Origin: Amphiscolops sp. MND2022 | Taxonomy: Eukaryota | DNA length: 64,000 nt | Direction of reading: 5' to 3' | NCBI GenBank assembly: GCA_964187785.1 | Contig: OZ076421.1 | Coordinates: 51,212,001-51,276,000 of the forward strand | Shown here: in pieces, positions 1 through 61,493 of the stretch | Numbering within the stretch: the first letter of the stretch is position 1 | Layout: each line of letters begins with the position of its first letter | Notes under the pieces: generated by a model | Databases searched by the model: none | Told to the model about the DNA's origin: nothing | The model's input: the letters and a program-made list of their open reading frames with translations, nothing else | Position numbers and translations under genes: made by a program

Positions 1-828
1 GACAACGGCATCAAAATTTTTTCTCTTCAATTTAATTTTCTCCGCCCATCTATATATGATCTCAAAACTGATGAAAAGGATCCATCCTTCCTTTCTACCG
101 CACAAAAAACCACTCATCATTTAACCTATACTCGCTTTTTTCAACACAATAAACCTCAAAATTACATTTTTGCGAACTGTAAATACACCTCACCTCTCAC
201 TATGACAAATTTGTACACCATCGATCACTCAAAGATAACTGGATATCTTCGCAATTATGACCCTATCAAACAATATTTTTGTTTGCTCCCGCATAATGAT
301 ACAGCTCGTCCTCTCATTGTACCTCAAGAATGTCTCATCCATTTTGATGACTTTTTGTTGCCTTGCAACATTCCTACTCAGATTGTCAAACCTTTAACAG
401 TCATCAAACACCTTGTCTCATCACCCTTAGATGACAAAGACATCTCATATTATACAGCTCTCTCGAAACAATCTCATTCATATTATGAACTTTTGTTCAT
501 AGCCGCAAAAACCATCTCTTACATGGTTCAAACTGAACAAACTCACACAGTTCAAACTGAACGAAAACACTGTTATACCAATCAGAAATCTCCTCCAAAA
601 TCTCCTATCAAACATAAAACTAGTGAAAAACTTTCCAACATGTTGAATAATCTCACTCAAATGTTAGATCCTTATAAACGAAACCCGTCAGACTCTCCAC
701 TCACCACTCTCAATTATCTCATACATTGCTATGATAGAACATCTCAACTTCTTCAAACTTTAGATCTCGATTCCCAACGTATAACACAATCCTCACAAGC
801 AATTGAATCTATGAACTTGAATCTATGA
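1..828 (+). CDS. 5'-partial ORF of unknown function (open from window start, 275 codons), probably a retroelement accessory ORF
   Basis: Frame 1 is stop-free from base 1 to TGA 826-828; strongly G-poor strand; no recognisable domain. Confidence 0.4.
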   Translation, partial: DNGIKIFSLQFNFLRPSIYDLKTDEKDPSFLSTAQKTTHHLTYTRFFQHNKPQNYIFANCKYTSPLTMTNLYTIDHSKITGYLRNYDPIKQYFCLLPHNDTARPLIVPQECLIHFDDFLLPCNIPTQIVKPLTVIKHLVSSPLDDKDISYYTALSKQSHSYYELLFIAAKTISYMVQTEQTHTVQTERKHCYTNQKSPPKSPIKHKTSEKLSNMLNNLTQMLDPYKRNPSDSPLTTLNYLIHCYDRTSQLLQTLDLDSQRITQSSQAIESMNLNL

Positions 829-10786: not shown

Positions 10787-10924
10787 AAGTGAAATTTAAT
10801 CAAACTTTGCCTAACGTACACCTTACTAAATTAGCTTGTAAATTTTGACTGTTTTACACCATTTACTAACAACGCATTTTGACTGGAATTCACTGCGTTC
10901 ATATTACACTTTGCTGCAAGGCTC

Positions 10925-13900: not shown

Positions 13901-15781
13901 ACTGGTGAAAAAACCCGAAGCAGCAAAAATAGCCGTTTGCTCGCCCAGTGGCGAGAAAAATTCCGTTGTTTCAGTCTCGATTCAAACGAATTTCTCTATA
14001 TGGACGAAAAACTTGTCATACCGAATTTACTGCGTCCTATTATTTTACGAAGCGTCCATTACGGACACCCGGGCCGTGGCAGCATGCTGGCAACAGTAGC
14101 AAACGTATGGTGGCCACGACTCCACAGAGAAGTGGTAGGAATCGCTCAAACCTGCCAACAATGCAAAACCGCGGGTAAGAACATTAAACCTTTACTACGG
14201 CACAGGCAAATAGGAAAACTACCGAGATGCACTGAAATTAATCAAGAAATAGCAATAGCTTTCGCGAGGCCATTTCAAAACGCAGTAGGAGCCAAAAAGT
14301 ATCTATTAGTCTCAATACACCAGTACAGCGGATGGCCGGAAGCACAATTCCTAAGAAAAACAAACAACGAAAAGGTAATCGACTTTTACAAAAAGTGTAT
14401 AGCAAGGCAAGGAATCCCAATAACAATTAGCACCGATCTTGCCATAATTTTTAGAAGCCAAATATTCAAAGAATTTTGCAAAGAATGGTACATAAACCAC
14501 ATAGAATGCCCAATAAAAGACCATAGAGGAAACGGAAAATAGAAAGGCTAATCCGAACTATAAACGAAAGACTAAGAACGAATAAGGAAACAATAGTAAC
14601 GAAAGATAAAGAAGGCCTCTCAGAAAAACTGTTCGCGCCCAGAATGAACCCATCAGCTACGAAAAAATCGCCTTTCGAACGGCAAACAAGTCAAGAACCA
14701 AATATAATTTAAAAAAATAATCACTAACCACAAACAGATTATTTCAGACAACCAAGAAGTCAACATCAAAAACGACAACTTAGAATCTGGCCAAGACTCC
14801 GCAATTATGGTCAGGGAGAGAGCAAGAGGGACAAAAGTAGAAGGACTGTACAAAAAGAGGAAGTGTTTACATCTGGAAAACAGCAACCACACAATAACCC
14901 AGCCGGTCGAACGCAATCCACAATAATCTCAAAACAAGATATTGGGCAGAACGCAAACGAATATAAGCCATGCTGCTCTAAATGGAGCAATACGCAAATA
15001 AACCAACAACCACCCACCAGTGAAAAGAAAAATAAAGTGGCGATTGAGAATAAAACGCCAACCCCCTTTTTCGATGCACTAGAAAGCGAATTGATTGGAC
15101 AAAGCGACTTAACCAAATACGTCAACCCAGAAAGCGAACAAAAAACGCAACACAACAGCCAACCATCACGCTCAAATATACAATTGGAATGGGAAAGCCA
15201 AAACGCACAGCCCACCTAACCATGATTGAATTGAAGAAAAGAGCACAAGAGCGCAAAGACAGAAACAACAACAAAATCTAAGAAGGGATAAGGCCATTCT
15301 GAAAAAGTTGGACACCATTATCTCAGAAGAGGAACTGGAAATAACAAACAACCCCGAAAGTGACAATCACCACAAAAAAACCAATCAAAAAGAAGGGAAA
15401 CAAATAGAAGAGAAAACTAACAACGAGACGAAAGAGAACACTTCCCGCAGAGGTGAACGAAGCCGTTGCAAGCCAGACTTCTATGGCCACAACGTATTGG
15501 TCTCCCAACTGTCCCCTAGTCCTACAAAAGAAGAAGAACATTAAACATATAACTTTAAATTAAACTAGAAACATTCAAGTGATGTAACCATAATACATAT
15601 ATACCAAAGTATGTACAACCGTTTGTAAATTACTGGGTAGTATATTTAACCAGTATACTTTTGTGTTAAATCGGGGGGTGTGGTAGAGCGCATGCTCTAG
15701 CCTAACTCAACCGTAGTTGTTACTGGTTGTTAGTAAACACAACCATTGAAAAGAGGATTCAGCAAAAGATCATTTGCCACA
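10925..15781 (+). mobile_element. Decayed Ty3/Gypsy (Mag-like) LTR retrotransposon, 5'-truncated
   Basis: Gag with CCHC-type knuckle (CRNCATLGHYARM), protease MIDSGS (~11650), RT with FIDD (12578-12589), RNase H remnants, integrase HHCC zinc finger (HYGHPG..CQQC) and core (13937-14542); many stops and frameshifts; PPT and 3' LTR present. Confidence 0.93.
15679..15781 (+). repeat. 3' LTR (103 bp) of the first Gypsy element
   Basis: Begins TGTGG, ends CCACA; immediately preceded by GGGGGG PPT (15673-15678); no second copy found in the window. Confidence 0.7.
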
Positions 15782-19177: not shown

Positions 19178-22100
19178 TGGCGCAGTCATAAAAAGAACTA
19201 TCAAATAATGAGCACCGACCGCAACATGTCTGAACAATCGGGACAATCCGAACAATCGGGAACACAAAATCAAACAACAACGATGGAAAGAATGGAAAAG
19301 AACAAGTACAAGATCCCAATTCTATCAGACCGGGAGACAGATTTAACAAAAACGAACACATGTGGTGGGAACAAATATCGGAATACATTGATCTCACATA
19401 CCACAAAAATCTGGAAGATTTGATGAATCACGGAACTGAAGGTATGGATGCCCATACAATCTACCACCTAAAGGGTGATGTCATCTGGGCTCTGGGCCCA
19501 AAAGCAAAGCACGAAATCATGAGAGGCCAAGGGGGCCGAGAGCTGAAAGATGTCAATATCCAAGAATTATTGAAGTTATTCAAAAAGACGTTCATGCCCG
19601 TCCGAAATATATTCCACAGCAGAGCACACTTCTTTAATGTAAAACAGGAAGATGGCGCGACACTTGATGACTATTAGAAAAGACTGGTGGACATTAGAAA
19701 AGCGAGTTCAACCGAATACCACCCGAAGAAATCATCACATAAAAATTTTCGGCAACAATCAACGATAAAAAGGCCCGGGACAATTTTATCAAAGGCCCGC
19801 TAGAACAACGAACTGTTCTAGAAACCATAGGGCTCGACAAACATAACCGTAAGTACGGCGATAAAAAACCAAGAAACAAAAATTCTAAGAGGACTTCCTC
19901 AAACAGCCTCTCCAACGGAGAACAAGTCGCCTTCACCAAACCAGTACGGAAGCGGAGACCGCTAGACACCGAAAGAAAGAAGCCACCAACCCGAAAATGT
20001 CACTTTGTGAGAAGCCCAATTGGACACCGGAACACAATTGCCCGGCACGGAAATCACAGTGCAATATTTGTAAAAAGACCTGACATTTTGCCAGTGTTTA
20101 CAAAAGCCCTACCGTGAACCGTGTACACGAAGAAGACAAAACGGACAGCAACACCGAGCCATGGCCTTAAGTGGACCACATTCAATCTACCAACGGTGTC
20201 AACCGGATAGACGACTTTTACAAAGCAATCCTATTTGTGGAGGGACAGCCAATAGAATTCATTAATGATACTGGATCTCCAATCACCATTATTCCGCCGA
20301 TAATTATTCCGAAGAAACTGACAAAGACCACAAAATGTTTTGTGGACGTTAACAAGAACCCAATCAATTTCAAGGGCGAGGCATTGGTAGAAGTCAAAAC
20401 AGAAAAAAAGCAGAGTTATGCTACCAATCCTTATAACTGAGAATAATGACACACAGCCACTACTGGGCCTTGATTGTTTAGATAAGCTGGAAATCGGATT
20501 AAAAGGTAACCGGAACACGAATATAATCCAAAACATACCTGTAGACCAGAGAAGTACAAAAATTCATGCCGAAATAGAGGATTTGTTCAAAAATAATCAT
20601 TCAATAAAAGGTCTGATAATCGACATCCAGCTGAAAGAAGACGTCAAACCCATCCAACAGAAAGGGAGACCCGTACCCACTTCCAAAACAGCATACGCCA
20701 TGAGTTAGAAAAGTTAATCGAAAAAAAAGCACCTGGAGAAGGCAGACGGAATGACCGCAAAAGGCTTCATTTCACCATCAGTAATGACGATAAAGAAAGA
20801 TGAATTGGTCCAACAAGCCCTAGACTCAAGAACGTTGAATGAATCCAGCATAAAGAGAAAGGCTGCCATGTCAAACTAGGAAGAGTTGATCAGCAAAATT
20901 TCCGCAGAGATCACTAAAAGCAACGGAGAAATATGGATGTCGAAAATCGAACTAGACTACGCCTACGAGCAGGCTAAACTATCCAAAGAAGCCGCAAAAC
21001 ACTGTGTATTCTCCGTAATCGGCGGTAACTTTACCGGCCACTGCCGTTTTAAGAAAGGCTTTTACGGGCTGTCGGACATTCCAACCGTCTTCCAAGAACA
21101 TATCGATAAAGTATTGGAGTTCAAAAGGCCAGTGTGGTTAGATGACATTATCTGCGTAACAAATGGCTCAATAGATGATCACGAACGAGAACTACGAGAC
21201 GTATTGTCCAAACTGGAGAAGGCTGGGTATCGCGTAAGCGAGAAGAAGACCGAAATGTTCAAAAAGGAACTGACACGGCTTGGCTATCACATAAACCAGA
21301 ACGGAGTAAAGCCAATAAAAGACACGACCGCAGCAATAACTAAGTCGACTGCCTCGAAAAATGTGAAGGGGGGCTAAATTCATTTCAGGACTCGATTCAA
21401 CATCTGTCCAAAATTTTAAACAATCTCTCCATGAAAACAGACAGAATGCGCAAACTGCTGAAGACAGACTCCAAATGGGAATGGACGGCCGAAATAAATG
21501 ATGACTTTGAAAATCTAAAGAAGGAGATAACCGAAGCCCCATGCCTGGCACATTTCGATCCAAAGAAGGATAACTATGTGACTACCAACGCATGCAACAC
21601 CGGTCTGGGGGCCACGTTGTGGCAAAAAGAGGGGGTTTTTGGACCCATTGCTTTTGCTAGTAGGTTTTTAACCGATTGTGAAAAGAAATATGCGATGAGT
21701 GAGTTGGAATTAGTGGGAGCTTTGTGGGGGTTAGAACACTTTAGATACTATGTCTACGGAAAAAGAGTAATTTTGATAACGGATCATCAAGCGTTACAAC
21801 CGTTGCTAAAACGCAACCGAGCTCACAAACAGTATAGTGCAAGAATAACGCGTTGGCTCGACCGCCTAAGCCTTTTCGATGTGAATGTTCAATACACCGC
21901 CGGTGAAATAATTCCGCTGCCGGATTAACTAAGTCGCCATCCATATCAAACTCCGACGAGTCCGAGATAAACGACGAAACATTCCGTGAAGAAGAGACGG
22001 AAGCCGAAGAAGAGTTCGTCATATATCAAATATACGGCTTATTTGAATTTAACCGAACAATCGGAAGTATTACGCAATTCATCGATCGAACTGCGGCGTC

Positions 22101-24703
22101 GCAGCAAACCGACCAATCACAACACGGCAAACAATTATGCGAGCAGCATATAAACGGTCATCCATTTTAAACTTCATTGAACAGCGTCAATTTAGTCAAT
22201 TCACTCAGCAAGCAACCGCCAAAAGCCAAAATGTATAAAGTGAACGGCATTGAAATGGAGTTTATCTTCAAAAAGAGGGGTCTTTCCCCAGAAACTGCTC
22301 GATTACGAAAAGAGAGGAACCGCATTCTAAAGCCGGACAGACTGCGAATCCGAATCGTCGGAAGAGGACGGGAGAATGAGAGGTTGCAAGAATACCGGCC
22401 ATCGCAACAAGGCCGCAAGCAAGTGGAAAAGCTGAAAATCGAGATATACAATAGATTCTTCAACTACTGCCAGACACTTGGTACCACCCCCTCCCAGAGT
22501 ACCAACAGAACAACCATGAATCCTGGTTGAATAGCTCAGATGGCATTTCAGTCACCTACAACAAGAAAAATACCCGACGAGCGTATTGAAGAAATTCAAA
22601 AAACACGAGAGTGTAAACTTGATCCGGTTCAAACAGACGGCTAAACGAACCACCATGGAACTCGAACTGAAAGAAAAGACGGCCGAAGCGATTCAGAGAG
22701 CGGAAAAGAATTTCGCATAAGATCTTCCATTGCTGGTAGAAGAAACAGCCTGGGAAATGAAATTTCTCAACGGGATCTCAGCTCTGGAATCTAATCTAAT
22801 GGAGAGTATTTTTTACCCATACCGCCCCCACAGAAGCCACTTGTCTACACGATTTGGCCTGTTGTTTTACAACGACAAGGTAATTATCCCCGAGGCGATG
22901 AGGACGACCATGGTGGCAATGCTGCATGACGGACACGCAGCAATCGACAAAATCGGCAAGGCAGCAGAAGCTTTCTGGTGGCCAGGAATGTACCGCGAAA
23001 TCCAGGAGAAATCCGAAAACTGTCCTAGCTGCAGAGCTCCAGGTAAGAATCTTAGAACGCAATTACCAACCACGGAAATAAACCGTTTAGAGATGTTAAC
23101 CGAACTGAACCGAAAAATCCAATTGGATTCCGCCGGTCCAATAAAATCCAAAACGCGTGGCGATGTTCACATTTTGGTCGCCGCATACCGGTTTAGCAAA
23201 TGGCCCACCGCACAGATTTGTAAGAACACGGACACCCGGACCGTAATAAATACTTCAACGAAATTTTTATCGGACAACGGAAAACCGCGGAATATCCGCA
23301 CCGATAACGGTAGTTGTTTCAAAAGCCACGAATTTAAACAGTTTTGCGCCGGCGAAAAGATCAAACGCATACGTTTGCACACCGAACCTTCATACCGATA
23401 CGGGATTGGTCGAAAGGACCGTACGGACGACTAAGTCGTTAACTAGAGCTAATTTGGAGGACGGAATAACTTTTGAAGAGAGTGTTCAATTAGCAGTTAA
23501 GACGATCAGACAAACACCGCATAGCAAATTAAATATGACTACTTTCCAATTGCATTTCGGACAAAAACCGCACACGGCGATTACCAATATGATTGGCCAG
23601 CCATCATGCCTCCTGTCCAATTGGAAAAAAAACTGTAACCAAGCATATTTCAGCACAACCGTCAGAGCTCCAGGTGTTCACTATACACGATTCGGACGGA
23701 GAGATGGCCGACTATCTCGTCCTGAATGAAAGCAAGAAAAGACCCCGTTCGGTAGGCCAAAATTTTAAACAGTACCAGTTTTACGAAAAGCAGGAAAAAC
23801 CCATTGCTATGAAGTGCAGGTTTAAGGTAAACAAAACTCTAACGGCCGTGAAAGAAACAGGTCACACCATCAATACGGCCGACAGGAAAATATTACATAA
23901 AAAAAATACATAAAAAAAAAACTAGCCTCTAACCCTCTAAACTTTCTGCCAACGAAGAAACCTGAAGAACCTAGGAAGCCGACCAGCAGATGCCGCAGGT
24001 GCGGCAAATTTAGTCAGGGTGACTTCTGCGAGACCCACAAAAGGCTGATCTCAGAAAAGCTGGTAAAAGACGAAGCTAGTACGAGTAAGTCCTTCCCCAA
24101 AATGCCAAAACGTGATGCCGAAGAAGAGAGGACCGTCATCACGATAACAACGGACAGTCAGACGGCCGATGCGGAAGGAGAAAGCAACGCTGCGGACGAA
24201 CACCCCGAAGCAGACGAAATCACGGAAATCGACGCCCCGCCACCAACAACCGCCACAGGCGACACACTCACGGCCGAAACCCCGATGCCATCATCACCCA
24301 TCGGCTGCAGAACCGGAATAGGCACTCGAACCAACGGATGGGACCCCACGGCCACTCCGACGAAACCATCGGATACCACCGTCGAACCGTCGGAAGAAGG
24401 TAGAGGATACGGTAGGGGAGGGCCGTGTAGAATCCACTAAGGGAACGGATAAAGTCTTTAGAAACTCACCGAAGGAAAATCTCGAAATTAGGAGGTCTAA
24501 TAGGATAAAAACCGCCAAACGGGTAGAAAAGATGAGGGGCATAGAATATTTTTAATAACACCCAGTTGGTTTAGAGAAGGACGCGACATCACCTAGACGC
24601 ATCATGAAGGCCTTCAAAAAGCCCAAAGTGGACCAACAGGAGAAAGCCGCCACCAAGAACTCCAAAAAAAGGTTTCCCTGATTCTCCATCCACAAGGGGG
24701 GAA

Positions 24704-24897
24704 TGTTACATGAAGATAGAAATAGTCTTCTAGACCCATTAGACAGTACCTGCCGTAAAGAACAACTCTCTTTCTACATGACACAAACTGTGCTATACTG
24801 TCATACAATTTTATTTTTGCATTCGATACAAGTTACTATTGATATTTGTCAATTTTAATTCAGCCTACTTATCAGATGTTTCCCCTAGTCTATTACA
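24704..24897 (+). repeat. Shared middle LTR (3' LTR of copy 1, 5' LTR of copy 2)
   Basis: Preceded by PPT and followed by PBS-like TAGCGTAGTC and a second gag start (24928). Confidence 0.92.
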
Positions 24898-26645
24898 TAG
24901 CGTAGTCATAAAAAGAACTATCAAATAATGAGCACCGACCCCAACATGTCCGAACAATCGGGACAATCCGAACAATCGGGAACACAAGATCAATCAACAA
25001 CGATGGAAAGAAAGGAAAAGAACAAGTACAAGATCCCATTTCTATCAGACCGGGAGAGAGATTTAACAAAAACGAACCCAAGAATGTGGTGGGAACAAAT
25101 ATCGGAACACATAGATCTCAAATACCACAAAAATCTGGAAGATTTGATGAATCACGGAAGTAAAGGTATGGATGCCCATACAATCTACCACCTAAAGGGT
25201 GATGTCATCTGGGATCTGGGCCCAAAAGCAAAGCACGAAATCATGCGAGGCCAATGGGGCCGAGAGCTGAAAGATGGCAATATCCAAGAATAATTGAAGC
25301 TATTCAAAAAGACGTTCATGCCCGTCCGAAATGTATTCCACAGCAGAGCAAAGTTCTTTAATGTAAAACAAGAAGATGGCGAGACACTTGATGACTATTG
25401 GAAAAGACTGGTGGACATTGAGAGAAAATGCGTGTTCAACCGAATAACACCCGAAGAAATCATCACATACAAATTTGCAGCAACAATCAACGATAAAAAG
25501 GCCCGGGACAAATTTATCAAAGGCCCGCTAGAACAACGAACTGTTGTAGAAACCATAGAACTCGACAAATATAACCGTGAGTACGGCGATAAAAAAAACC
25601 AAGAAACGAAAATTCGAAGAGGACTTCCTCAAACAGCTCCTCCAACGGAGAACAAGTTGCCTTCACCAAGCCAGTACGGAAGCAAGCGGAGACCGCTAGA
25701 CACCGAAAGGAAGAAGCCCCCAATCCGAAATTGTCACTTTTCTGGGAAGCCCAATTGGACACCGGAACACAATTGCCCGGAACGGCAATCACAAAGCAAT
25801 CTTGCAAAAGCAAGACCGTGACCCGGGTACACGAAGAAGACGAAACGGACAGCAACACCGAGCCATGGCCTGAAGTGGACCACATTCAATCTACCAACGG
25901 TGTCAACCGGATAGACTTTTACAAACCAATCCTGTTGGTGGAGGGACAGCCAGTAGAATTCATTATTGATACTGGATCTCCAATCACCATTATTCCGCCG
26001 ACAATTAATCCGAAGGAACTGACAACGACGACGAAACGTTTTGTGGACGTTAACAAGAAACCAATCAAATTCAAGGACGAGGCATTGGTAGAAGTCAAAA
26101 CAAAAAAAGCAGAGTTATGCTACCAATCCTTATATCTCAGAATAAAGACACACAGCCACTACTAGGCCTTGATTGGACAGATTAGCAGGAAATCGGATTA
26201 CAAGGTAACTGGAACACGAATATAATCCGAAACAACTGTAGACGAGAGAAATACAAAAATTCATGCCGAATTTGAGGATTTGTTCAAAAATAATCATACG
26301 ATAGAAGGCCTGACAATCGACATCCAGCTGAAAGAAGACGTCAAACACATCCAACAGAAAGGGAGACCCGTACCCATCCACTTCCAAAACAGCGTACGCC
26401 ATGAGTTAGAAAAGTTAATCGAGAAAAGGCACCTGAAGAAGGCAGACGGAACGACCGAAAATTGCTTCATTTCACCAGCAGTAATAACCATGAAGAAAAA
26501 TAAATCGGTCCAACAAGTCCTAGACTCAAGAAAGTTGAATGAATCCGGCATAAAGAGAAAGGCGGCCATGTCAAACATGGAAGAGTTGATCAGCAAAATT
26601 TCCGCAGAGATCACTAAAAGCAACGGAGAAATCTGGATGTCGAAA
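24898..26645 (+). mobile_element. Second, 3'-truncated internal copy of the same Gypsy element (gag, protease, RT N-terminus)
   Basis: Collinear with 19178-20950; stops at ATCTGGATGTCGAAAA (IWMSK) where it joins block A'. Confidence 0.92.
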
Positions 26646-37929: not shown

Positions 37930-39255
37930 CAAGAAATTGTGAGAAACTCGGTTTTGGTTGGCGAAGAAGAAACGAGCGAGTAATTTGAAAAAAAATGCTT
38001 TGAATAAATTTTGAGATATCCGATTGTATTTGGTTGAAATTACCGGTAGAAAAGATTTTTTTAAAAAAAACTTTGATGAAATTCGGAGACACTCGGTTTT
38101 CATTGGCTGCGGATTTAATGAAATTCGGAGACACCTGATTGTATTTGGTTGAAGGGACGCGACGGAAAAAAATTGAAAAAATGACATTATGAGACTCTCG
38201 CTTTTGATTGGCTGCGAGGAAACGTGCGGAAAATTGAAAAATACTTTGATGAAATTCTGAGACACTGGCTTTTGATTGGCTACGAGGAAAAGTGAGGAAA
38301 ATATAAAAAATACTTCGATGAAATTTCGAGACACTCGGTTTTGATTGGCTGCGAGGAAACGTGCTGAAAACTTAAAAACACTTCAATGAAATTCTGAGAC
38401 ACTCACTTTTGATTGGTTGCGAAGCAATGTGCGGAAAAATTTAAAAAACACTTTGATGAAATTCTGAGACACTGGCGTTTGATTGGCTGCGATGAAACGT
38501 GAGGAAAAATTGAAGAAATACTTTGATGAAATTTCGAGACACTCTGTTTTGATTAGCTGCGATGAAACGTGCGGAAAATTAAAAAAATACTTCGATGAAA
38601 TTCTGAGACATTGGCTTTTGATTGGCTGTGAGGAAACGTTAGGACAGTTTAAAAAAATACGTTGATGAAATTTTGAGACACTCGGTTTTGATTGGCTGCG
38701 AAGAAACGTGCGGAAAACCTAAAAATACATTAATGAAATTCTGAGACACTCACTTTTGATTGGCTGCGAAGTAATGTGCGGAAAAGTTAAAGAAGACTTT
38801 GATGAAATTCTGAGACTTTGGCGTTTGATTGGCTGCGATCAAACGTGAGGAAAATTTAATAAAACACTTTGATGAAATTTCGAGACACGCGGTTTTGATT
38901 GGCTGCAAGGAAACGTGCGGAAAATTAAAAAATACTCTGATGAAATTCTGAGACACTGGCTTTTGATTGGCTGCGAGGAAACGTTTGGAAAATTAAAAAA
39001 AAAACAGATGAAATTTCAAGACACTCGGTTTGGATTGGCTCCGAGGAAACGTGCGGAAAACTTAAAAATACTCAATGAAATTCTGAGACACTCACTTTTG
39101 ATTGGCTGCGAAGAAATGTTCGGAAAAGTTAAAAAAGACTTTAATGAAGTTCTGAGACACTCACTTTTGATTGGCTGCGAAGAACAGTTAAAATTCTCTT
39201 GATGAAATTATGAGACACTCGCTTTTGATTGGCTGCGAGGAAAGGTGCGGAAAAA
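37930..39255. repeat. 69-bp satellite array 1 (~19 monomers, 5-mer higher-order repeat)
   Basis: Consensus TTGATGAAATTCTGAGACACTCGCTTTTGATTGGCTGCGAGGAAACGTGCGGAAAATTAAAAAATAC; equivalent variants recur at 38245, 38591, 38936. Confidence 0.95.
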
Positions 39256-39529
39256 ATGTGTCATTAGTTAACACTTAACCTACGAGACTATCCCATTTCC
39301 ACTAAATTGCATTCAAATACCTCAAATTTCAACATTTTGTGGCAGTTCCAATTCGCATTGCGTTTGGATGAAATTACTTTCCAATTAGCAATAGTTGTAG
39401 AAGTTGCATGATCAAGAGTTTAAAAATGATGAAAATACCTTCCGTCGGATAATTAAATGAAATGATTTGCTATTTTTATTAATGTAACAATAACTTAAAA
39501 TCTTGGTACTCCAAACATGCTTTTGAGGC

Positions 39530-40150
39530 AGCGAAGAAATAGAAACCTATTTTTCACTTTGATTTGATTGAATTTGACCATAAAACAACCCATGATTTTT
39601 GATCTTTTCAAAAATCTCTTTTATAGGTCCAAAGCTGCTTCCGGAGTACTGGGGGGCACCTATTGAAAGTATTCTGAGCAAAACTACCAATATGCATCGT
39701 TTTTGCGGAAACGAAGAAAAAGAAACTTATTTTTCACGATTATTTGATTGTATTTGACCATAAAACAATCCTTGATTTTTGATTTTTTCCAGTAAGTCTT
39801 TCATAGGTCCAAAAATGTTTCTGAAGTACTGAGGGGCACCCATTGAAAACATTCTGAGCAAAACTACCAATATGAATCTTTTTTGTGGAAACGAAGAAAA
39901 AGGAACCTATTTTTTATGCTGATTTGATTGAATTTGACCATAAAACAATCCCTGATCTTCGATTTCTTCCAATATATCTTTTATAGGTCCAAAATTGCTT
40001 CCGGAGTACTGGGGGGGCACATATTGGAAGTGTTCTGAGCAAAACTGCCAATTTGCATCGTATTTGTGGAAACGGAGAAAAAGAAACCTATTTTTCACGT
40101 TGATTTGATTGTATTTGACCATAAAACGATCCTTGATTTTTGATTTTTTA
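39530..40150. repeat. 180-bp tandem repeat (~3.4 copies)
   Basis: GAAACCTATTTTT anchor at 39542, 39722, 39902, 40083. Confidence 0.92.
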
Positions 40151-40163
40151 TCCATTGTCTCCT

Positions 40164-40916
40164 GATATCAATCTAAAGCATAATTTCACATATCACAGTT
40201 CAAATGGGATATTTCAGTGTGCTTTAGCTGGTTCTTGGGCTCCAATGAATATCTTCCGCCAGCCACGAATTGTATTGTAAGAGAAATCAGGAATTTTCCA
40301 TCAATTATGGCAGCGGTTCTTGTAATCAACACAGGACCTGGATGGCACTAAATATAGCCTAAACCAAAACTATAGGCATGGAAAAAGTGCACAATGTGCT
40401 TGAGAACAAATTTTTATACTTAAAAAGTTCTAGTAATTATTCCAAATATTGCAGGAAAAAAGTCGTCCCATATCACTGTTTTGATGAACACTTTTGGGGG
40501 TCCGAAAATTTTTCTAGTTGCCGTAGGTGCGTCAAATCACCACTGCGTAACTTGTACCCATAGTAAGTGACGAAAATGGGTGCAATGTAGACCAACTCTC
40601 AGCATAGCTATTTTCAGACGGTGCGAGAAGTTAACTTCGAACATATCCTTTTTCGAAAAAAACATACATAGGTACACTCAGGCATCTAAAACCACTTGAT
40701 ATCAAACTAAGGCATAAATTCACATATCACAGGTCCCATAGTATACGTCAGTGTGCTTTAGTTGGTTCTTGGGCACAATTAAAAAACTTCCGCCAGCCAA
40801 GAACGGTATGGTAGGAAACATCAGGAATTGTTCCATCATTTATGGCAGCGGTTCATGCAATCAACACAGGACCCGGAGGGCCCTAAATATAACCTAAATT
40901 AAAAGTATAGGCATTG
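40164..40916. repeat. Pair of ~215-bp diverged direct repeats 534 bp apart
   Basis: 40164-40379 aligns with 40698-40916 (GATATCAA..CAGTGTGCTTTAG..TATAGGCAT). Confidence 0.85.
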
Positions 40917-41224
40917 GCGCGCCCATTGAGTGTATCTAGGTCCAGAAAAGCAGTATGGGACATTATTTTGAAAACTAAGAAAAAATAAATCTATATTTCA
41001 CGTTGGCTTGATTGAGTTCGGTGTCAACAATGACACCTAATTTTTCAAGTTTATTCTCTAAATAATAATCAATTGATACGTAGGTGACCTGGTGGAATGG
41101 GGCGCACCACTTGAGTGTATTTAGGAACAGAAAAGCAGCGTGGGATATTTTTGTGAAAAATAAGAATAAGAAATTTCTAAAAAATATATAAATAATGAAA
41201 TGTTTTTTATTATAAATGAAAAAA

Positions 41225-42810
41225 TGTTTTGATGAAGTTCTGAGACTTCCTATTGTATTTGGTTGAAGGGGGCGAAGAAAGAATTATAAAAAAACATTGA
41301 TGAAATTCTGAGACACTCATTTTTGATTGGCTGCGAGGAAACTTGCGGAAAGTTTAAAATATACCTTGATGAAATTCTGAGTCACTCGCTTTTCATTGGC
41401 TGCGAGGAAACGTGCAGAAAATTTAAAAAATACCTTGATGAACTTTTGAGACACTGGCTTTTAATTGGCGGCGAGGAAACGTGCGGAAAATTTGAAAAAT
41501 ACCTCGATGAAATTCTGAGACACTCGCTTTTCATTGGCTGCGAGGAAATGTGCAGAAAATATAAAAAAATACCTCGATGAACTTTTGAGACACTCGCATT
41601 TTATAGGCTGCGAGGAAACGTGCGGAAAAATTAAAAAATACCTTGATGAAATTTTGAGACACTCGCTTTTCATTGGCTGCGAGGAAATGTGCAGAAACTT
41701 TAAAAAAATACCTCGATGAAATTTTGAGACACTCGTTTTTTATTGGCTGCGAGGAAACGTGCGGAAAGTTTAAAAAAAACCTTGATGAAATTCTGAGACA
41801 CTCGCTTTTCATTGGCTGCGAGGAAACGTGCAGAAAGATTAAAAAATACCTTGATGAAACTTTCAGACACTCGCTTTTAATTGGCTGCGAGGAAACGTGC
41901 GGAAAATTTAAAAAATACCTTGATGAAATTCTGAGACACTCGCTTTTCATTGGCTGCGAGGAAATGTGCAGAAAATTTTAAAAAATACCTCGATGAAATT
42001 TTGAGACACTCGCTTTTTATTGGCCGCGAGGAAACGTGCGGAAAATTTAAAAAAATACCTTGATGAAATTCTGAGACACTCGCTTTTCATTGGCTGCGAG
42101 GAAACGTGCAGAAAAAATTTTAAAAACCATGATGAAATTTTGAGACACTCGCTTTTGATTGGCTGCAAGGAAACGTGCGGAAAAGTTGAAAAATACTTTG
42201 ATGAAATTCTGGGACACTCGATTTTGCTTGGCTGCGAGGAAACGTGCGGAAAATTAAAAAAAATTACCTTGATGAAATTCTGAGACACTCGCTTTTCATT
42301 GGCTGCGAAGAAACGTGTGGAACATTTTAAAATACCTTGATTAAATTTTGAGACACTCGCATTTGATTGGCTGCGAGGAAACGTGCGGAAAAGTTGAAAA
42401 AGCTTGAAGAAGTTCTGAGACACTCGCTTTTGCTTGGCTGCGAGGAACGTGCGGAACATTTTAAAAAATACCTTGATGAAATTCTGAGATACTCGCTTTT
42501 CATTGGCTGCGAGGAAACATTCGGAAAAATTAGAAAATGTTTTGATGTAATTCTGAGACAACCGATTATATTCGGATGAAGTGACTCGTGAAATATATAA
42601 CATTTTGATGCAATTCTGAGACACTCGCTCCTGATTGGCTGAGAGGAAATGTTCAAAGATTTTGAAATTATAATTTGATTAAATTCTGAGACACTCACTT
42701 GGAATTGGTTGAAAGGATGCGAGCGTCTATGCCAGAAAGATTTTTTGATGAAATTCTGAAAGCAATTGATTCCAATTGGTTGAAAAGGAAGCGTGCGAAA
42801 AGTTCAGAAA
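41225..42810. repeat. 69-bp satellite array 2 (~23 monomers, 2-mer higher-order repeat in its core)
   Basis: Same monomer as array 1; TTTTCATTGG..GTGCAG alternates with TTTT(A/T/G)ATTGG..GTGCGG over 41365-42190. Confidence 0.95.
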
Positions 42811-44310: not shown

Positions 44311-44510
44311 NNNNNNNNNNNNNNNNNNNNNNNNNNNNNNNNNNNNNNNNNNNNNNNNNNNNNNNNNNNNNNNNNNNNNNNNNNNNNNNNNNNNNNNNNN
44401 NNNNNNNNNNNNNNNNNNNNNNNNNNNNNNNNNNNNNNNNNNNNNNNNNNNNNNNNNNNNNNNNNNNNNNNNNNNNNNNNNNNNNNNNNNNNNNNNNNNN
44501 NNNNNNNNNN
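44311..44510. other. Assembly gap of 200 N
   Basis: Run of N. Confidence 1.
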
Positions 44511-51120: not shown

Positions 51121-52798
51121 CTCTTCCCAATAAGAAGTGATTTGGTGCCAAAGCTTCCAAGTCATCAGGGTCGTCACTAGCACTAGTCAGGTGTCCTTGC
51201 ATTCAACGTCTGTTCTACTAAGCCACATAGTTGTTATCACGACGTCGTTTGTCGAGGATCGTCCATCCAATACAGCTATCATTGCTTTTTTGCAGCTTCG
51301 AACCAGACGTTCCCATATTCCTCCAAAATGTGGAGCCCTAGAGGGTTGAATTTTCACTTGATGTCCTTTCGAGCTAAAGGTTTCTCAATATCTGCCTGAT
51401 TCCATGCTCACTTCTATAGGTACACTCACGAAGTTTGTTCCATTGTCGCTCAAAATGGTAGTAGGTTTGGCTGTCCGGGCAATACACTTTGTTACAGCAG
51501 TTAAGCAGGTCTCTGCTTCCAAAGATGGAACAACTTCAATGTGTACTGCTCTAGTCGTCAAGCATGTGAGGAGACAACACCATCTCTTCATAGTTTTACG
51601 CGAAAATTTAACTTGAAAGGGACCAAAATGTTCAACTTCAGTGTTGGTAAAGGGGAACACTCGTTCCTGCTATCTCTCTTGCGGTAAATCAGCCATAAAA
51701 GCTTGAGACATTCCAGCTTGTTGCTTTCCACATTTCACACATTTCGCATTGATGTTCCTCAGAGCGTTTATCAATCCAATAATCCAAAATTCCTGCTTGT
51801 GAACACTTCTGGCGTATTCTGTGCCTTCATGGAAAATCGCTTAGTGAGGGTCTTCAATCAACTTGATGACAACATAGTGCTTTGCTGACAACAACATCGG
51901 GTGTCTGACCTCATAACTTGACTTTGAATGCTGCAGTCTGCCTTGTATTCGCAGCAACCCCTTTTTTGTCCAGAAACGGCAGTAATTTATTCAATTGATC
52001 TGACGCCGACAACGGTTCCCTTTAGAGATCTTCTCGTAAGCATCATGAAAATTTTCCTTCGGACAATGTTTCAAAATTGCCAGCTCTGCTGCATTGAGTT
52101 CGTCAACTGTCAGATTTCCTCCAGAAATATTTTCCTTCCACCTTAGGCAGTATGACAGCACTCGAATCATTTTCTTGAAGGAACTAAATCTTTCCCACTG
52201 GAATGGGGGTTCCATTACAACAGCTTCCATGAATGGTTCAGGCTCCTCCTGAACGCTGAATTGCAATTTTTCAGGAACCTTAGGCCAGGCGACTTCCGTC
52301 ATACTCAGCCAGACCGGTTCTCTTAGCCACCCGCTCTCTTTTAGGGCTTCAACTGTCATTCCACGAGAGCCAATGTCAACGAGGTTCAGTTTTCCTTCAA
52401 CATGCCGCCACTGATCGATAGTTGAAATTTCGAGGATTTCAGCAACGCGGTTTGCCACAAAGACCGGTTGTTTTCTGTTGCTTGCGTGAAGCCATTGTAG
52501 GACCGTTGTTGAGTCTGTCCAATGTACGAATCGATCTACTTCAATTTCATGTCCTTCTAAAATGAGGTCTCGCAGTCTTACCCCAAAGACTGCAGCCTGC
52601 ATCTCCAACGTAACCACTGTCATATTTCGTATTGGAGCTACTCTACATTTTCCGATCACAAAGGTCACTTTGGCATTGTCTTGTTTTCTCAAATAGGCAA
52701 TCATACCCATTGCTTCCAACAAACCATCTGAGAAGATTTGTAGATCCACTTTCTTCAATCCTGACTCGAAGTATGTTCTTTTAAGGACCATTTGATTC

Positions 52799-53883
52799 AG
52801 GCCCGCTATGGTGTTTCCAGAAGGTCCAAGAACAATGAGGAAGCGTTGCAGATGCTAGAACAAACCACAAAACTTGATGGCGAAAGAAACAAAGTTGGCC
52901 TTTCTGGAAATGAAAAGTTGCCCTTCTTGCCGAACAATTTTTCTTCGGCCTCGAGACAAACGAAGTCGTTGGGGGCATAGACTCGAAAAGAAACCGGAGT
53001 TGAAGAAACTCTATCAACACTCCATCAAAGTAGCTGTTGAGGAAGGATTGCTATGTGAGAGTCCTAATGCAGGGTGAGTTAGAAGCCACAAAACTGGAAA
53101 GACAGTGGAATGTACCACATCACGCAGTTGAAAACCCAAACAAACCTGGGAAAAAGAGGCGAGTCTGCAACGAAGTGTCTAAATTCAGAGGAAATTCACT
53201 GAAGGATAACCTCTTGACAGGACCCGACCAACTGCAGAATCTGATTGGAAATATCTTCAGGTTAAGAGAACAAAGATCGCGATTACCGCCGACATAGAGG
53301 CGATGTTTCCTCAAGTGAAAGTACCACCAGAAGTGTTGTGATTTTTATGAAGAGACAACCCAAACAAACTCGTCAAGGTGTATGAGTATGGAAGACATAT
53401 CTTCGGAGCAAAAAGTTCGCCAACTTGCGCTAATCATGCTCTGCAACAAGTTGCAAAAGATAACGCACAGGAGTCCCCCACAAATTACCAAACTGATAAT
53501 GCGAAGTTTCTATATGGATGATTTTGTCAAGTCTGTTCCCAGCACTGAGCAGGTTTTTGAAATCTACCAATTGTTGCGAGCAAATTTTGGAAGTGCAATG
53601 GAACGTTAAAGCGGTCGATCTGGAAGTCTGAAGAGGCATGCAGAAGGAGATACCAGCGAAGATAACTCAGAGAGCGGTGTTATCCCATGTTTAAGCTGTG
53701 TTCGACACTCTGGGAATAGTGTCTCCTTTCAGCATAAGATAGCGACTGCTACTGTAATCAATATGGAAGGAGAACGGACAGTTGTGGGATGAAAAACTTA
53801 ATGAAGAAAACCGACATGAATTCAAGAAATGGGCATCAGAGATGATTCATGTGAATCCAATGGTCCTTTAAAGAACATACTTC
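52799..53883 (+). pseudogene. BEL reverse-transcriptase segment inverted relative to the rest of the element
   Basis: RT motifs read on + while gag, RNase H and integrase read on -. Confidence 0.9.
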
Positions 53884-56304: not shown

Positions 56305-57466
56305 TCAGAAGCATGTTTATACAAAGTAAATATCACCAATTTCAACAGAGTTACTTTCTAAGAGGATCATATGGGTAAATAACAAAGTTTAGGCTTTGGC
56401 TCATTGACCTCGAACATTGCACATGTGCGGGGTAACGGGGGTTATAGTGTGTGACGGACGTTGAAACTTGGCCGGTGTGTTCGTGTTAGGTACCTGAATA
56501 TGTGTACCAAATTTCATGGCTGTATGGTTCATAGTTGTCGTGAAAACCCAGTTGGGGAGTTGCAGGTTTATGACGATTGGATTTTCTTCAATTTTTTTTG
56601 TGTTTTCTGAGTTTAAGTCTTGTTTCTCAACCAGCATGTTTGAAATTGACTTTCTTCGCCTGCTGATGACTGGCGCCAACAAAGGGTATCCTTTCACTAA
56701 GTGAAAATTGTATTGCAAAAAGTCGCAGTGTCAAAAAAAATCATATGTGTTTTCAACAACCATTGATGAAACTCATCAGTTCTAAATGATTTAAAAGTTT
56801 GGAAAAAAAATCATTGTTCCAAAAAACGCAAATAATGGGACCATTTGGGTTTTTTACCATCCAATTGTGTGCAACAGATCAAAAAGACAACAAACAGCAA
56901 AGAGGGACCCCTCGACGACAAAAAATAGGAAAAAGTCTCAATGCCAAAACAAACTAGTAAAACCAAACATTCTGTGTTGTCTATTAATGAAAATGCTGCA
57001 AAAATTATGCTACCCAAAGGCGGCACCCTTTGCAATGCTTTCTAGTAAGATAGGAAGGCCTATAGAAATTTTGTTAGAAAGAGGACCTTTCAATGTGATG
57101 TCTGACAAAAAATTAAGAATAGTAAGAGTCGGGCATTTTCTGTTTCAAAAAAGTGCCGACAAAAAACTACCAACCAACAATCACCAATTTTGAAACCACA
57201 TGGTTCATAATTTTAAAAAATTAAGTCAAAAGCCACATGAAGTTTCAAACAATTTTTTTTGTAACTAACGTTGTCATCTACAGATTTTTACCAAAAAAGT
57301 GATGGAAAATTATTGCAAATAAAAAGGAGCGGTTCCAAAAACACGTAATATTTTTTGTAAGCTGTTGCGTAACATGTAGTAGTAGTAGTAAAAGACTCAA
57401 TTCCAATTACGGAAATTATTTAACAAAGAAAAATAATTATAGCGAACAAAACATAAATCAGTTGAA

Positions 57467-60304
57467 TTAGGACCTACAACAAGTGCACATACATTTGAGG
57501 TAGAAGCAACAAGAATTATCGATGTTAAAATTCTTTGTTAGCATCTTGGAATAACAGTCAAGAGAAAACTTTAAAGATGATAGAGACATGGTTAAAGATA
57601 TAACATTTTGACTTAAGAGAAAGTTTACAGAACGTGTGGCTCGTACGAAGAAGTTAGCGTTTGAGCCAAGTTTTTTTGTATCAGGGATAATAAATTGATT
57701 GGCCGAAGATGCACGCGTACAAGAGGCAACATTAGATGGACAGTATTCACAATCAACATCACTATTGTAAATTTTTCACAGTAGAATCACGTCAGCTTTG
57801 ATGAGTTGGTAGCAGATTGGAAGAAACTGTAGCTGGAGCAGACCTGAAACATAGTCCTCTGATGAAAACATCCATTTCAAAACTTTATATTGGAATTTTT
57901 CTAGTCTTGCAATATACGTGGAGGAGGGAAACCACACAGGAGAACCGTAGAGAAGAACAGATAAAATAATACTTCGATAAAACAGTTTCTTTCTGACAAT
58001 AGAACAATTGAATGGAACATTGCTTCGAAGAAACCCAAATATTTTTCGAGCAGTGGCTAATTTATGGTCAATGTGGCTGTTCCAGCTTAGATTGTGAGTA
58101 GTCAGGAAGCCCAAATCTTTTATATTGTCAACCACCGGAAGATCATTGTCGCCAAGAATGAATGACTCATCGAAAGACGAGGAACCAAAAGGTAAAATTT
58201 TGCACTTTGAAGGGTGAAAGATCAGACCGTTGGCAATACTCCAAAGACACAAGTTGTCAATATCACTTTGAATTTGGCGGGGATCAACATCGAACAACAC
58301 CTTCATATCATCAGCAAACAAGAAAGGAGTACCATAAACTATTAAGTTTGGCATATCGTTTACAAACAGGATAAACAGTAATGGACCCAGTACACTGCCT
58401 TGCGGTACACCAGAAGAAACGGTTATTTTACTGGAGAAGGTATTATTAAGTTTTACACACTGGGAGCGTTCATCCAGGTAAGAAGAGAACAAGCGAATAA
58501 AATCTGGACAGAACCCGAATTTCACAAGTTTTTGCAGAAGTAAGTGATGAGGCACTGAGTCGAAAGCTTTTCTGACGTCGAAATATGCAGCTAATGACGG
58601 TACGTTGGAATCAATATTACGGTAGACTTTATCAAGATATAATATCATCTGCGTTACAGTACTTCGTTTTGTCATGAAGCCGTGCTGGTTTTTAGTAATC
58701 GAATTTCGGACTTTTGGATATATAAAATTTAAAAGTATACGTTCCAAAATAACAGACAATTTAGGCAAAATACTTATTGGTCGATAGTTTTCTATCTGCG
58801 TTCGCGGACCATCTTTGTGAAGAGGAGTAACAAAAGACAACTTCCACACAGCAGGCCAAGTTCTATTATGTAAAACCCAGTTGAAGAGTTCAGTAACTAT
58901 GGGAGTAAGGATCTGAGAACATCGATATAGAATGAAGGAGGGAATACGATCTGGACCAAGGGATGACGAATCATTGCCTTGACTAAGCATGAAAGTAACA
59001 GTTTCCGCCCGAATAGAAACATCATCAAGACAAATTTTGTGATCTGAAGACATGAAAAGAGTAGGTGGGGTGATGGTTTTGGGACCAAATACTGATCCGA
59101 AATAGTTATTAAAACAGGTTGCTTTCTCACTTTCAGTATGTAAAACTTGATCTTCAAAGTACATAACAGCAGGATATGATTGACTAAAACCTAGTGAACG
59201 CAGAAGTTTGAAACAGTCTGTTGGCGACTTTAAGCTGAATTGCTCAATGTAAATGTGTTTGTCAAGTTCAATAGATTCAGAGAGGACACGTGTCAACTCA
59301 ATATGCTTGATTGAATTGTGGAGCGACCAACCTTTGTTCAATTTTGTTTGGTTAGTTCTAACAAGATTGAGAATATGGATTGTATGTGATGAGTAGAAAG
59401 CTGGAAAATGAAGTCTTTTGGAACGCTTGAGCTGCAGAGATCTTCCAATAGATTGGGTTAAAAGTTCATACCATTCGTAAGGATAACAGGGACTAGACAT
59501 GTTATCAAGTGTTATGAAATTGAATAAAGTTTCAAGATTACTGTTGAAAAGGAATTGGTCAAAAGAAGATTTGGAGAACGATTCAATACAAACTGGTTTA
59601 GGCAGGCAGCAAGACGTGTAGATTAATATTGGAAAATGATCAGAAAACAACTGTTGGTGAACATTGAAAAAGCTAGTGTCGTCATTTGTTAGAATCAGGT
59701 CAAAAATGTTTCCCAACTTATGAGTCGGGACATCGAATAACTGCGAAACTGCTAACAGGTCAGAGGTTTCAATAAACTTTTGCTCATTAGTATTTGATGA
59801 TGTTAGAGTAATCCAATCGATTTCAGGAAAATTGAAATCGCCGAGAATGTATAAGATATAGTCTTCACCAAAACCACATTGATAACTCATTGAGGCAAAT
59901 TTCGTAATATAAGAATGTAGACATGATGTCAAAATCTTGCAGTCTATGCGGTATTCAGATGTAGAAGGTGGGAAATAAATAAGAACGAAGCATATGAGTT
60001 TCACGTCAATAATAACACAGGCTACAGAGAATTCGTAGTCGACAATAGAAACATCCATAATATTCAGGTTGACATCATTTGAGGCACCAATCAAAACACC
60101 ACCATGAGAGCCAAAAGAACGGTCAGAGCGAGAGATAACAGTGAAAGAATTGCCCAGAAAAACCTCAGAATTCTTTACGTCATTTGAAAGCCATGTTTCC
60201 GTTAAGAAGATTAAAGAAACAGTGTTGACAGTACATAACTTGTTCAAATTTTGCCTCTTTTCAATGCTACAGATTGACTGACAATTCACCAAAAGACAGT
60301 TTAG
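57467..60304 (-). CDS. LINE ORF2: apurinic-like endonuclease + reverse transcriptase, one internal TGA at 57776-57778
   Basis: LTETWL, GDFNFP, DLILT, SDHFPI (APE); YRPISIL, QHGF, KAFDSV, GVPQGSVLGP, FADD (RT); frame continues 102 codons past the TGA to CCFYLKCMCTCCRS-TAA. Confidence 0.93.
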
Positions 60305-61189
60305 TCAGTCCGTTGGAGTTTCGACTGGTTTGCCTTGGTAGAAAAGCTGCAAGTTTTGGATGCGGAAATCCTCTCTCTCTTTACCTTCCGACACCATAGA
60401 ATAACGCTTTTGTAGTACAGCTTTCTCAATTTTACGTTCAGTAGGTGTCAAGAACTTCTTGACATACACTGGATCAGTGTATGTTTTCAGGTAATGACTT
60501 CTGGCAAAACAATTTAGTAGAAAATGACTGTTTGATGTAGAAATCAATAAAGGACGACAACTTCTAGGTGTGTTATTGGCCGGATTTATTTTTTTGCCAA
60601 GCCTTCTCACTGCAGTGACATTGCCTTCAGTTTTCAGACCCATGTGACCAAGGATTTTGTTAACACTTTCCGAATCATGTTCAAGTTGCTCAAAGTAGGT
60701 TGACCCACTTTCACTTGCACCAGTAAGGACAAAGTTTAATTCAGAAGATGGAGCCGATTTGTTTAAATTTTTGCCAGTTACCACGTCTTTATATGAGGGT
60801 AGCGAGTCAACGACAGCAGTTTTAACTTTTTCATTCAATTCAATTATTACCTTTGGCAAAGATTCATCGATTGCTTTAGGGATAAGTTCAGCAACAGAAG
60901 TTTTGATTTTAGAAGTAAAAGAATCAAATAATGATGTCAACTTATCTTCGGAATTGTTGGTGAAAACTTCATTATTCACGCATGAATTGCACACCCACAA
61001 ACAGTTGGGATTTGATCCAAGCCATTCAAGATCATTGACACTCAAGTTGACACATCCACCGTGGACCCAGCCGTTGCAAGAGTGGCAGCAAATTCCTGAT
61101 TTGTCATCATCCTTGACAGCCTTGTTGCATTCCTTGCACAGAGTGGATGAAGCTTTGGAATTGTTCCGTAGTTTGCGAACATTCGCCAT
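60305..61189 (-). CDS. LINE ORF1 with N-terminal PHD (C4HC3) finger, 294 aa from ATG 61189
   Basis: CKEC...CHSC...HGGC...WVCNSC spacing; intact frame. Confidence 0.92.
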   Translation of the reverse strand: MANVRKLRNNSKASSTLCKECNKAVKDDDKSGICCHSCNGWVHGGCVNLSVNDLEWLGSNPNCLWVCNSCVNNEVFTNNSEDKLTSLFDSFTSKIKTSVAELIPKAIDESLPKVIIELNEKVKTAVVDSLPSYKDVVTGKNLNKSAPSSELNFVLTGASESGSTYFEQLEHDSESVNKILGHMGLKTEGNVTAVRRLGKKINPANNTPRSCRPLLISTSNSHFLLNCFARSHYLKTYTDPVYVKKFLTPTERKIEKAVLQKRYSMVSEGKEREDFRIQNLQLFYQGKPVETPTD

Positions 61190-61493
61190 AACATTCAATA
61201 TGAAACTATTTAATGTAATACACTAATGTAATACACTATTGTTCACTAAAGCTGTTGACAAGTTTCAAACGAATGAAGTAACAACTGACTGGTTGTTAAT
61301 TTTGCTTGAGATTGCATTTGTCAATCGCTTTAGTGAATATTAGTGTATTTGTTTCGTAGTTTGAAGTTTCTACCGAATATGTTTTCAGAGTTCGAAATAT
61401 TCTGACAGCTTTTAAACCAAAACACTTAGAATGACAAGAATATTAGCATGCGGAACAATCACTCATGTCTTCACAAACAATTCATGTTTTCAG

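Follow-up and report, generated by a model that had tools for sequence, protein, structure and literature searches.

An in-frame UGA-CUA junction between ORF1 and ORF2 of a PHD-bearing LINE from Amphiscolops, a candidate for programmed stop-codon readthrough

Introduction

The mode of ORF2 translation has been settled for few long interspersed elements (LINEs), and the reviews, in the parts available, describe reinitiation or 2A skipping only. In human L1 and silkworm SART1 the second open reading frame (ORF) is translated by termination and reinitiation, according to the portions covered of PMC5972666 and PMC2881922. Ribosome skipping by 2A sequences in LINEs is treated in PMC3894237, in whose searchable text the terms 'readthrough' and 'read-through' are absent. 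Here we analyzed a LINE in a 64,000-nucleotide (nt) stretch of the Amphiscolops sp. MND2022 assembly (contig OZ076421.1, positions 51,212,001 to 51,276,000), hereafter the window. ORF1 and ORF2 of this element lie in one frame, separated by a TGA followed by CTA. An earlier reading made from the letters of the window (the sequence-only reading) proposed that the element produces its enzyme by readthrough of this stop.

For the zebrafish L2 element ZfL2-1, Kajikawa et al. reportedly proposed in 2012 that ORF2 is probably translated when the ORF1 stop is suppressed, with an effect of the 3' context. Passages citing that study (PMC3905857, PMC13343379, PMC4176376, PMC3880073) do not restate stop suppression in the parts available. 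Leaky stops are better described in viruses. The Sindbis nsP3-nsP4 junction reads UGA CUA ACC (excerpts of PMC13517186), and UGA-CUA alone gives 1.5% readthrough in mammalian cells (excerpts of PMC4132726), in line with the sequence-only reading, which had called UGA-CUA a leaky context. A 3' stem-loop is present in alphaviruses and, in the sections consulted, was not required in the vertebrate genes tested. The closest described LINEs by domain content carry a type IIC ORF1, in which a PHD finger lies N-terminal to a transposase-22-like RRM and C-terminal domain (CTD) (PMC4120745, in part); the parts covered of that paper are silent on ORF2 translation, and those of PMC5009743 hold nothing on LINE ORF2 readthrough. 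Our literature search, from which subscription papers were mostly out of reach, found no paper on readthrough of the LINE ORF1-ORF2 stop.

Results

The ORF1-ORF2 junction

The ORF1 stop is the TGA at 60307-60305 on the minus strand, the strand of all element features given below. The codons directly after it are CTA AAC TGT CTT TTG GTG AAT TGT CAG TCA (LNCLLVNCQS). The ORF2 frame is the ORF1 frame and remains open for 842 codons past the TGA, which confirms the single frame across TGA-CTA seen in the sequence-only reading. The proposed readthrough signal comprises the stop and the first ORF2-frame codon (60302..60307). The first in-frame ATG is codon 83 of ORF2 (60056..60058), as expected from the earlier placement of it more than 70 codons inside the endonuclease; no AUG in the ORF2 frame overlaps the ORF1 stop or follows it more closely. 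The remaining ATGs within 250 nt past the stop lie in other frames, which stay open for only 2-18 codons.

The codon after the stop also begins an APE-type endonuclease (59612..60304), which was identified by profile and fold matches. A profile search matched ORF2 to L1 ORF2p (E 1.4e-57), and the predicted endonuclease structure superposed ORF2 residue 1 on L1 endonuclease residue 8 (Z 23.0, root mean square deviation (rmsd) 2.7, 211 aligned). A single-sequence PDB search with the endonuclease gave no match, whereas the profile and fold searches did. The model places residues 2-7 in beta strand 1, so the earlier claim that strand 1 starts right after the stop holds. Glu36 is aligned to L1 Glu43, and Asn7 falls at the position of L1 Asn14 by offset. 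Asn14 and Glu43 are catalytic residues in L1. Codon 83 is downstream of both Asn7 and Glu36. Initiation there would lose both, and therefore the translated enzyme must extend back to the stop or close to it. The reverse transcriptase (RT) occupies ORF2 residues 499-704 (58193..58810; Pfam PF00078, E 2.2e-29).

CTA follows ∼1.0% of the TGA triplets in the window. At that chance frequency a lone TGA-CTA is weak proof, and the case therefore rests on conservation.

The stop in close relatives

Predicted proteins of close relatives indicate that the ORF1 TGA is not private to the window copy. P0001 (98% identical) and P0002 (97%), which represent clusters of 11 members each as counted through cluster representatives, end ORF1 at the last residue of the window ORF1. 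Relatives at ∼50% identity (P0004, P0005 and P0009) end in the same alignment column. Among 163 ORF1-like proteins 94 reach the end of ORF1; 27/94 stop exactly there and 65/94 within 3 residues. On the other side of the junction, 12 endonuclease matches included five close ORF2 relatives, P0019, P0020 (55 members, again from cluster representatives), P0021, P0022 and P0023. All five start in or after strand 1 and have no leader, which would fit a gene caller choosing TTG or GTG past an in-frame stop.

No fused ORF1-endonuclease-RT protein was found among 1483 candidates of 516-2000 residues (a weak search), among the 12 endonuclease matches of up to 1474 residues, or among the best 150 of 407 profile matches, the longest of which had 407 residues. 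An ORF1 scan of genome contigs for DNA of close relatives matched 124 stretches and confirmed none. The sequence-only reading had listed a sense codon at the stop, an ATG or a frame offset in other copies as evidence that would count against it; in the close family, intact copies have no sense codon there, and neither an ATG nor a frame offset was seen.

Decayed relatives that run past the stop

Some ORF1 relatives run past the stop, and their residues at that position carry information on the codon that was there. Twenty-one proteins have tails of at least 11 residues past the ORF1 end, and in 9/21 the tail resembles the endonuclease in frame (0 of 200 shuffles for each). These nine run-on relatives are short and decayed and have 34-50% identity to the window ORF1. 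The stop column lies ten places before the strand-1 Asn column and could be scored in 8/9; P0039 lacks the junction and was left out. The linker to strand 1 in the window is three codons shorter than in the run-on lineages, and the frame is still kept.

In 7/8 scorable run-ons the residue at the stop column (S, W, G, R, R, R and W) has a codon that differs from TGA by a single base, against a background of 32% (P ∼0.002, binomial, assuming independence). Gly and Arg are not one base away from TAA or TAG. Leu comes next in 6/8 (P ∼5e-5, binomial, with the same assumption). The run-on copies differ among themselves in the stop-column residue, and P0047, P0149 and P0017 each have a 77-86% identical partner that stops exactly at this column.

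The other 12/21 tails are not endonuclease-like in frame. Two are P0054 and P0172, and ten are unexplained or uninformative. When 163 proteins were decoded across frameshifts against endonuclease references, P0054 alone exceeded the null maximum. The one reading open to it is TGA then CNA (score 74.5; null maximum 55 in 1000), and given the Leu in its subfamily mates P0047 and P0149 its junction would read TGA-CTA. Decoding of 118 proteins against ORF1-end references gave four above the null maximum, of which only P0086 was informative. P0086 allows YGA then YTG (57.5; null maximum 53.5 in 240), and the end of its partner P0105 falls at this point. P0011 and P0010 also passed this decoding and end before the junction; P0126 was a misplaced match.

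The twelve copies labelled in this way, together with the window, are spread over a clade of 33/69 ORF1 rows (support 0.81). The 36/69 more distant rows outside that clade carry no junction information.

DNA junctions in distant LINEs

An endonuclease scan of bacterial and archaeal genome contigs returned 21 loci (L001-L021), most of them on short contigs and one, L018, in a 2.07-Mb contig. They are probably eukaryotic LINE DNA contaminating prokaryotic assemblies. An endonuclease start and an upstream in-frame stop are visible at 12/21 loci, whose endonuclease is ∼29% identical to that of the window; L004, L006, L008, L012, L014, L016, L018, L019 and L020 lack one or the other and were excluded from the count that follows.

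Four loci have an in-frame junction. In L005, TGA CTA stands between an ORF1-like frame (491 codons or more; profile E 5e-13) and strand 1, and the first ATG is codon 274. A 416-codon frame precedes TGA CAA TTG in L007, a 361-codon frame precedes TGA CTC in L010, and a 13-codon frame, cut by the contig edge, precedes TGA CGC in L003. TGA-C was thus found at 4/4 in-frame junctions vs 0/8 loci with other layouts (Fisher p 0.002; 0.006 without L003). Each of the remaining eight loci has a long leader that contains ATG, has an upstream ORF in a different frame, or is decayed. TGA-C makes up 7-17% of stop triplets in L003, L005, L007 and L010. In a midpoint-rooted FastTree phylogeny of 26 rows, L003 and L005 group with the window family (support 0.97) and L007 and L010 fall in another branch. 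The conservation check proposed in the sequence-only reading therefore extends to distant relatives, in which the stop is also UGA and the next base C. The full UGA then CUA is found in the window, L005, and P0054 with P0047 and P0149; other lineages have CUG/UUG, CAA, CUC or CGC.

Other features were seen at these loci. TGA CAA TTG in L007 (1447-1455, plus strand) is one base off the CARYYA readthrough motif of the tobacco mosaic virus type (PMC4132726, in part). In L005 (∼300-340, plus strand) a 2A-like DVEVNPGP, a motif of the kind described in the parts covered of PMC3894237, precedes the PHD finger in ORF1, and this element may combine ribosome skipping with readthrough. L002 and L006 have long N-terminal leaders with NPGP just before strand 1 and no nearby in-frame stop, and a similar stretch is present in L009; the NPGP-leader layout of L002 and L006 belongs to a sister branch.

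Layout of the element

The element is a single minus-strand copy at ∼61242-57376 of the CR1/L2 group (CR1, L2, Crack or Daphne), a label based on ORF1 type, tail and general features of such elements. It is an APE-type retrotransposon of the non-LTR (LTR, long terminal repeat) class, with APE endonuclease then RT in ORF2, a microsatellite tail and no LTRs. By self-BLAST there are no further copies of it in the window, and it has no terminal repeats or LTRs.

The short 5' leader (61190..61242) has as its 5' part a 13-nt tandem duplication (61211-61242), which is probably the 5' junction of this copy. Upstream-frame letters of P0001 and P0002 match the window only over the last ∼8 codons preceding the ATG at 61189. 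ORF1 (60308..61189) encodes 294 amino acids (aa) comprising a PHD finger, a helical region and an L1-type RRM plus CTD. The PHD finger (residues 18-70; 60980..61138) matched Pfam PF00628 (E 7.9e-5) at 23 bits, slightly below the curated cut-off of 24, and was matched in 4/11 alignment members. An ESM Atlas search returned only PHD-bearing eukaryotic look-alikes. The RRM and CTD (60308..60745) were recognized by structure. The C-terminal model best matches human L1 ORF1p (2w7a, Z 9.2, rmsd 2.6, 92 aligned; 2ykq and 2ykp, Z 8.2 each), and the top five structural matches are all L1 ORF1p, though Z values of 8-9 are modest. The best Foldseek match, 2ldy, was weak (E 1.7e-3). A helix of low model confidence precedes the RRM. 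On these models ORF1 is of type IIC, with PHD and L1-type RRM-CTD, in the scheme of Metcalfe and Casane. A Pfam domain scan found no protease domain in the element.

The most stable 100-nt window of the element on folding is 60451-60550 (z -3.69; 1 of 38 windows, 30 shuffles). A perfect 10-bp hairpin lies near 60485-60463, ∼160 nt upstream of the stop, and may be due to chance.

A second in-frame TGA, followed by AAA, lies at 57776..57778. It is private to this copy, as P0019 and P0020 have Trp there. Therefore the fusion from this copy would be ∼1137 aa. The ∼1240-aa product predicted by the sequence-only reading, which did not mention this stop, stands for intact copies. The second TGA also serves as an internal control: at this position relatives have Trp, whereas the ORF1 stop is kept. 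Beyond it are the last 102 ORF2 codons (57467..57775) with a Cys-rich motif at the end and the terminal TAA (57469-57467). ORF2 ends in the same way in P0019 and P0020, and similarly in P0021 and P0024. This copy differs from P0020 at 40/926 residues and is probably inactive, as the private TGA costs it those 102 codons, Cys-rich motif included. A short 3' untranslated region with a (TAC)5 microsatellite tail (57390-57376) completes the element (57376..57466). No convincing target-site duplication was found; the best match is a 9-mer that does not adjoin the tail.

Elsewhere in the window there are fragmented remains of a gypsy-type LTR retrotransposon with RT, RNase H, integrase and gag (∼10900-15300 and 20800-26200, plus strand), a BEL/Pao retrotransposon fragment with Peptidase_A17 (51991-52854, minus strand), and satellite arrays, whose repeat units measure 68-69 bp and 180 bp, with a 200-N assembly gap after them (38181-42700 and 44311-44510).

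Discussion

The best explanation of the junction, which we hold with good though not full confidence, is programmed UGA readthrough giving a Gag-Pol-like ORF1-endonuclease-RT fusion. Readthrough is favored because the frame, the UGA and the +4 C are conserved, as it predicts and reinitiation does not. In the proposed mechanism most ribosomes would terminate at the UGA and release ORF1p, and a few percent, helped by the CUA, would decode the UGA and proceed into the endonuclease. The figure of a few percent is a guess, given that folding revealed no 3' stem. Intact copies would yield a fusion of ∼1240 aa, and the leaky stop would set a high ratio of ORF1p to enzyme. If ORF1p trimerises like L1 ORF1p, as its L1-like predicted fold suggests, the fusion could enter the ORF1p trimer and keep the enzyme attached to the ORF1p that coats its own RNA, much as happens with Gag-Pol in gammaretroviruses. 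The frame, the stop, the missing ATG and the conservation of stop position, frame and UGA-C were observed; that the UGA is decoded, how often, and what fusion results and does are inferred.

Several observations weigh against readthrough. The downstream stimulatory stem that the sequence-only reading had suggested looking for was not found by single-sequence folding with pairing within 183 nt: the downstream sequence had z -0.86, 15 windows gave z between -0.97 and +1.91, and nothing fell below z -1.74 in L003, L005, L007 and L010. The context is CUAA, not the stronger CUAG. TTG and GTG are present at codons 5 and 6 of the window ORF2. In two lineages the stop is followed by YTG, itself a near-cognate start, and codon 10 of L010 is an ATG that lies within strand 1, two residues ahead of the Asn. 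For both L007 and L010, the match of the upstream ORF to the ORF1 profile is weak (E 0.08 and 0.04, respectively). In the close family the evidence comes from predicted proteins, not DNA. Among the run-ons, P0035 has T-K at the stop column (E-L under the window spacing), neither of which fits TGA, and P0055 has Pro, not Leu, following Arg. The stop column of four run-ons was anchored by eye on the strand-1 Asn distance after the data had been seen, and P0047 and P0149 are one subfamily. P0172 allows YGA then YTG, but its score of 48.5 is below the null maximum of 55.

The main rival is termination followed by non-AUG reinitiation just past the stop, yielding a separate ORF2p as in L1 or SART1. 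Candidate codons exist, namely the TTG and GTG in the window and a CTG or TTG as codon 1 in some lineages, and L010 offers its ATG within strand 1. Reinitiation is the mode used by SART1 and L1 (portions of PMC5972666 and PMC2881922), and L1 ORF2 withstands the replacement of its ATG by any sense codon (PMC1965478, on Alisch et al., in part). However, reinitiation requires no shared frame, no UGA and no +4 C, and all three are conserved. A start at codon 5 or 6 would remove most of strand 1 (residues 2-7), the sole near-cognate codon before the Asn in L005 is an ATT at codon 3, and the 150 nt upstream of the stop hold no UGGGA motif of the calicivirus type. We regard reinitiation as unlikely, although its probability is not negligible.

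The two remaining explanations are far less probable. The UGA could be bypassed by splicing, adenosine-to-inosine editing or selenocysteine insertion, or the host code could read TGA as sense. Each would account for an in-frame UGA and none is positively supported (no search for a selenocysteine insertion sequence was made); there is no AG acceptor from the stop to Asn7, folding gives no duplex at the junction, Trp is TGG 14 times in the element with TGA only at the two stops, and none of the four predicts a conserved +4 C. We consider this group very improbable. Least probable of all, and largely refuted, is a family with one long ORF in which the TGA is a private nonsense mutation of a dead copy. 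The window copy does have another private stop and the divergence from P0020 noted above, nine relatives read on in frame, and a single ORF headed by a PHD is described for some CR1 and L2 subgroups (PMC4120745, parts covered). Against this, close copies end at the identical residue, no fused protein was seen among the candidates and listed matches of the three protein searches, and the run-on copies are short, decayed and unlike each other at the stop column.

Programmed readthrough at a conserved leaky UGA is a simple rule, and it predicts a fusion protein that would offer a direct route to cis preference and to one enzyme per ORF1p-coated RNA. With somewhat better than even confidence, UGA-C readthrough is an old and widespread means of enzyme production in CR1/L2-group LINEs, present in at least two well-separated branches alongside AUG-led, overlapping and NPGP layouts. 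If so, many LINEs would make a Gag-Pol-like fusion that becomes part of an L1-type ORF1p trimer, annotations that place the ORF2 start at an internal Met would be mistaken, and LINE activity would be tuned by how efficiently the host reads through. Gene callers start such ORF2s inside the endonuclease, which matters for annotation. Decayed copies provide a natural mutational scan that exposes the stop codon without DNA.

Comparison with known systems

Human L1 and silkworm SART1 resemble this element as bicistronic LINEs whose ORF2 depends on ORF1 translation, and the ORF1 fold is L1-like. The two ORFs of L1 are separated by a 63-nt spacer, in SART1 the stop and start overlap as UAAUG, and both are called reinitiation (PMC5972666, in the parts covered); the LINE described here has neither spacer nor AUG. 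L2 subgroup 6 and CR1 subgroup 5 with type IIC ORF1 have PHD plus RRM-CTD, APE plus RT and a microsatellite tail in common with it (sections of PMC4120745).

Among viruses, the window UGA CUA A is identical to Sindbis over 7 nt, within the Type II readthrough class (UGA-CUA/CGG; PMC13517186 and PMC4132726, in part). Sindbis has an extended 3' stem-loop (PMC13517186, in part), whereas none was detected in the LINE by folding. Vertebrate readthrough genes have UGA-CUAG with G at +7, and the LINE has A. The likeness to gammaretroviral gag-pol, as in Moloney murine leukaemia virus (MoMLV), lies in a polyprotein of structural RNA-binding protein and enzyme, in one frame, with a leaky stop setting the ratio. 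In MoMLV a protease frees the enzymes. The domain scan found no such protease in the LINE. MoMLV uses UAG and a pseudoknot (PMC13517186, in part); the LINE has UGA with no structure detected at the junction.

A close precedent is ZfL2-1, whose ORF1 is an esterase dispensable in cultured cells (excerpts of PMC13343379 and PMC3880073), in contrast to the PHD and L1-type RRM-CTD found here. A second difference from ZfL2-1, as that element is reported, is that the signal described here is conserved over lineages with ∼29% endonuclease identity. Given the proposal reported for ZfL2-1, the sequence-only reading probably overrated the novelty. Viruses already provide examples of the mechanism, as reportedly does one fish LINE. 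The apparently new points are that a candidate readthrough signal occurs together with an L1-type PHD-RRM ORF1 and that distant CR1-group lineages have conserved it.

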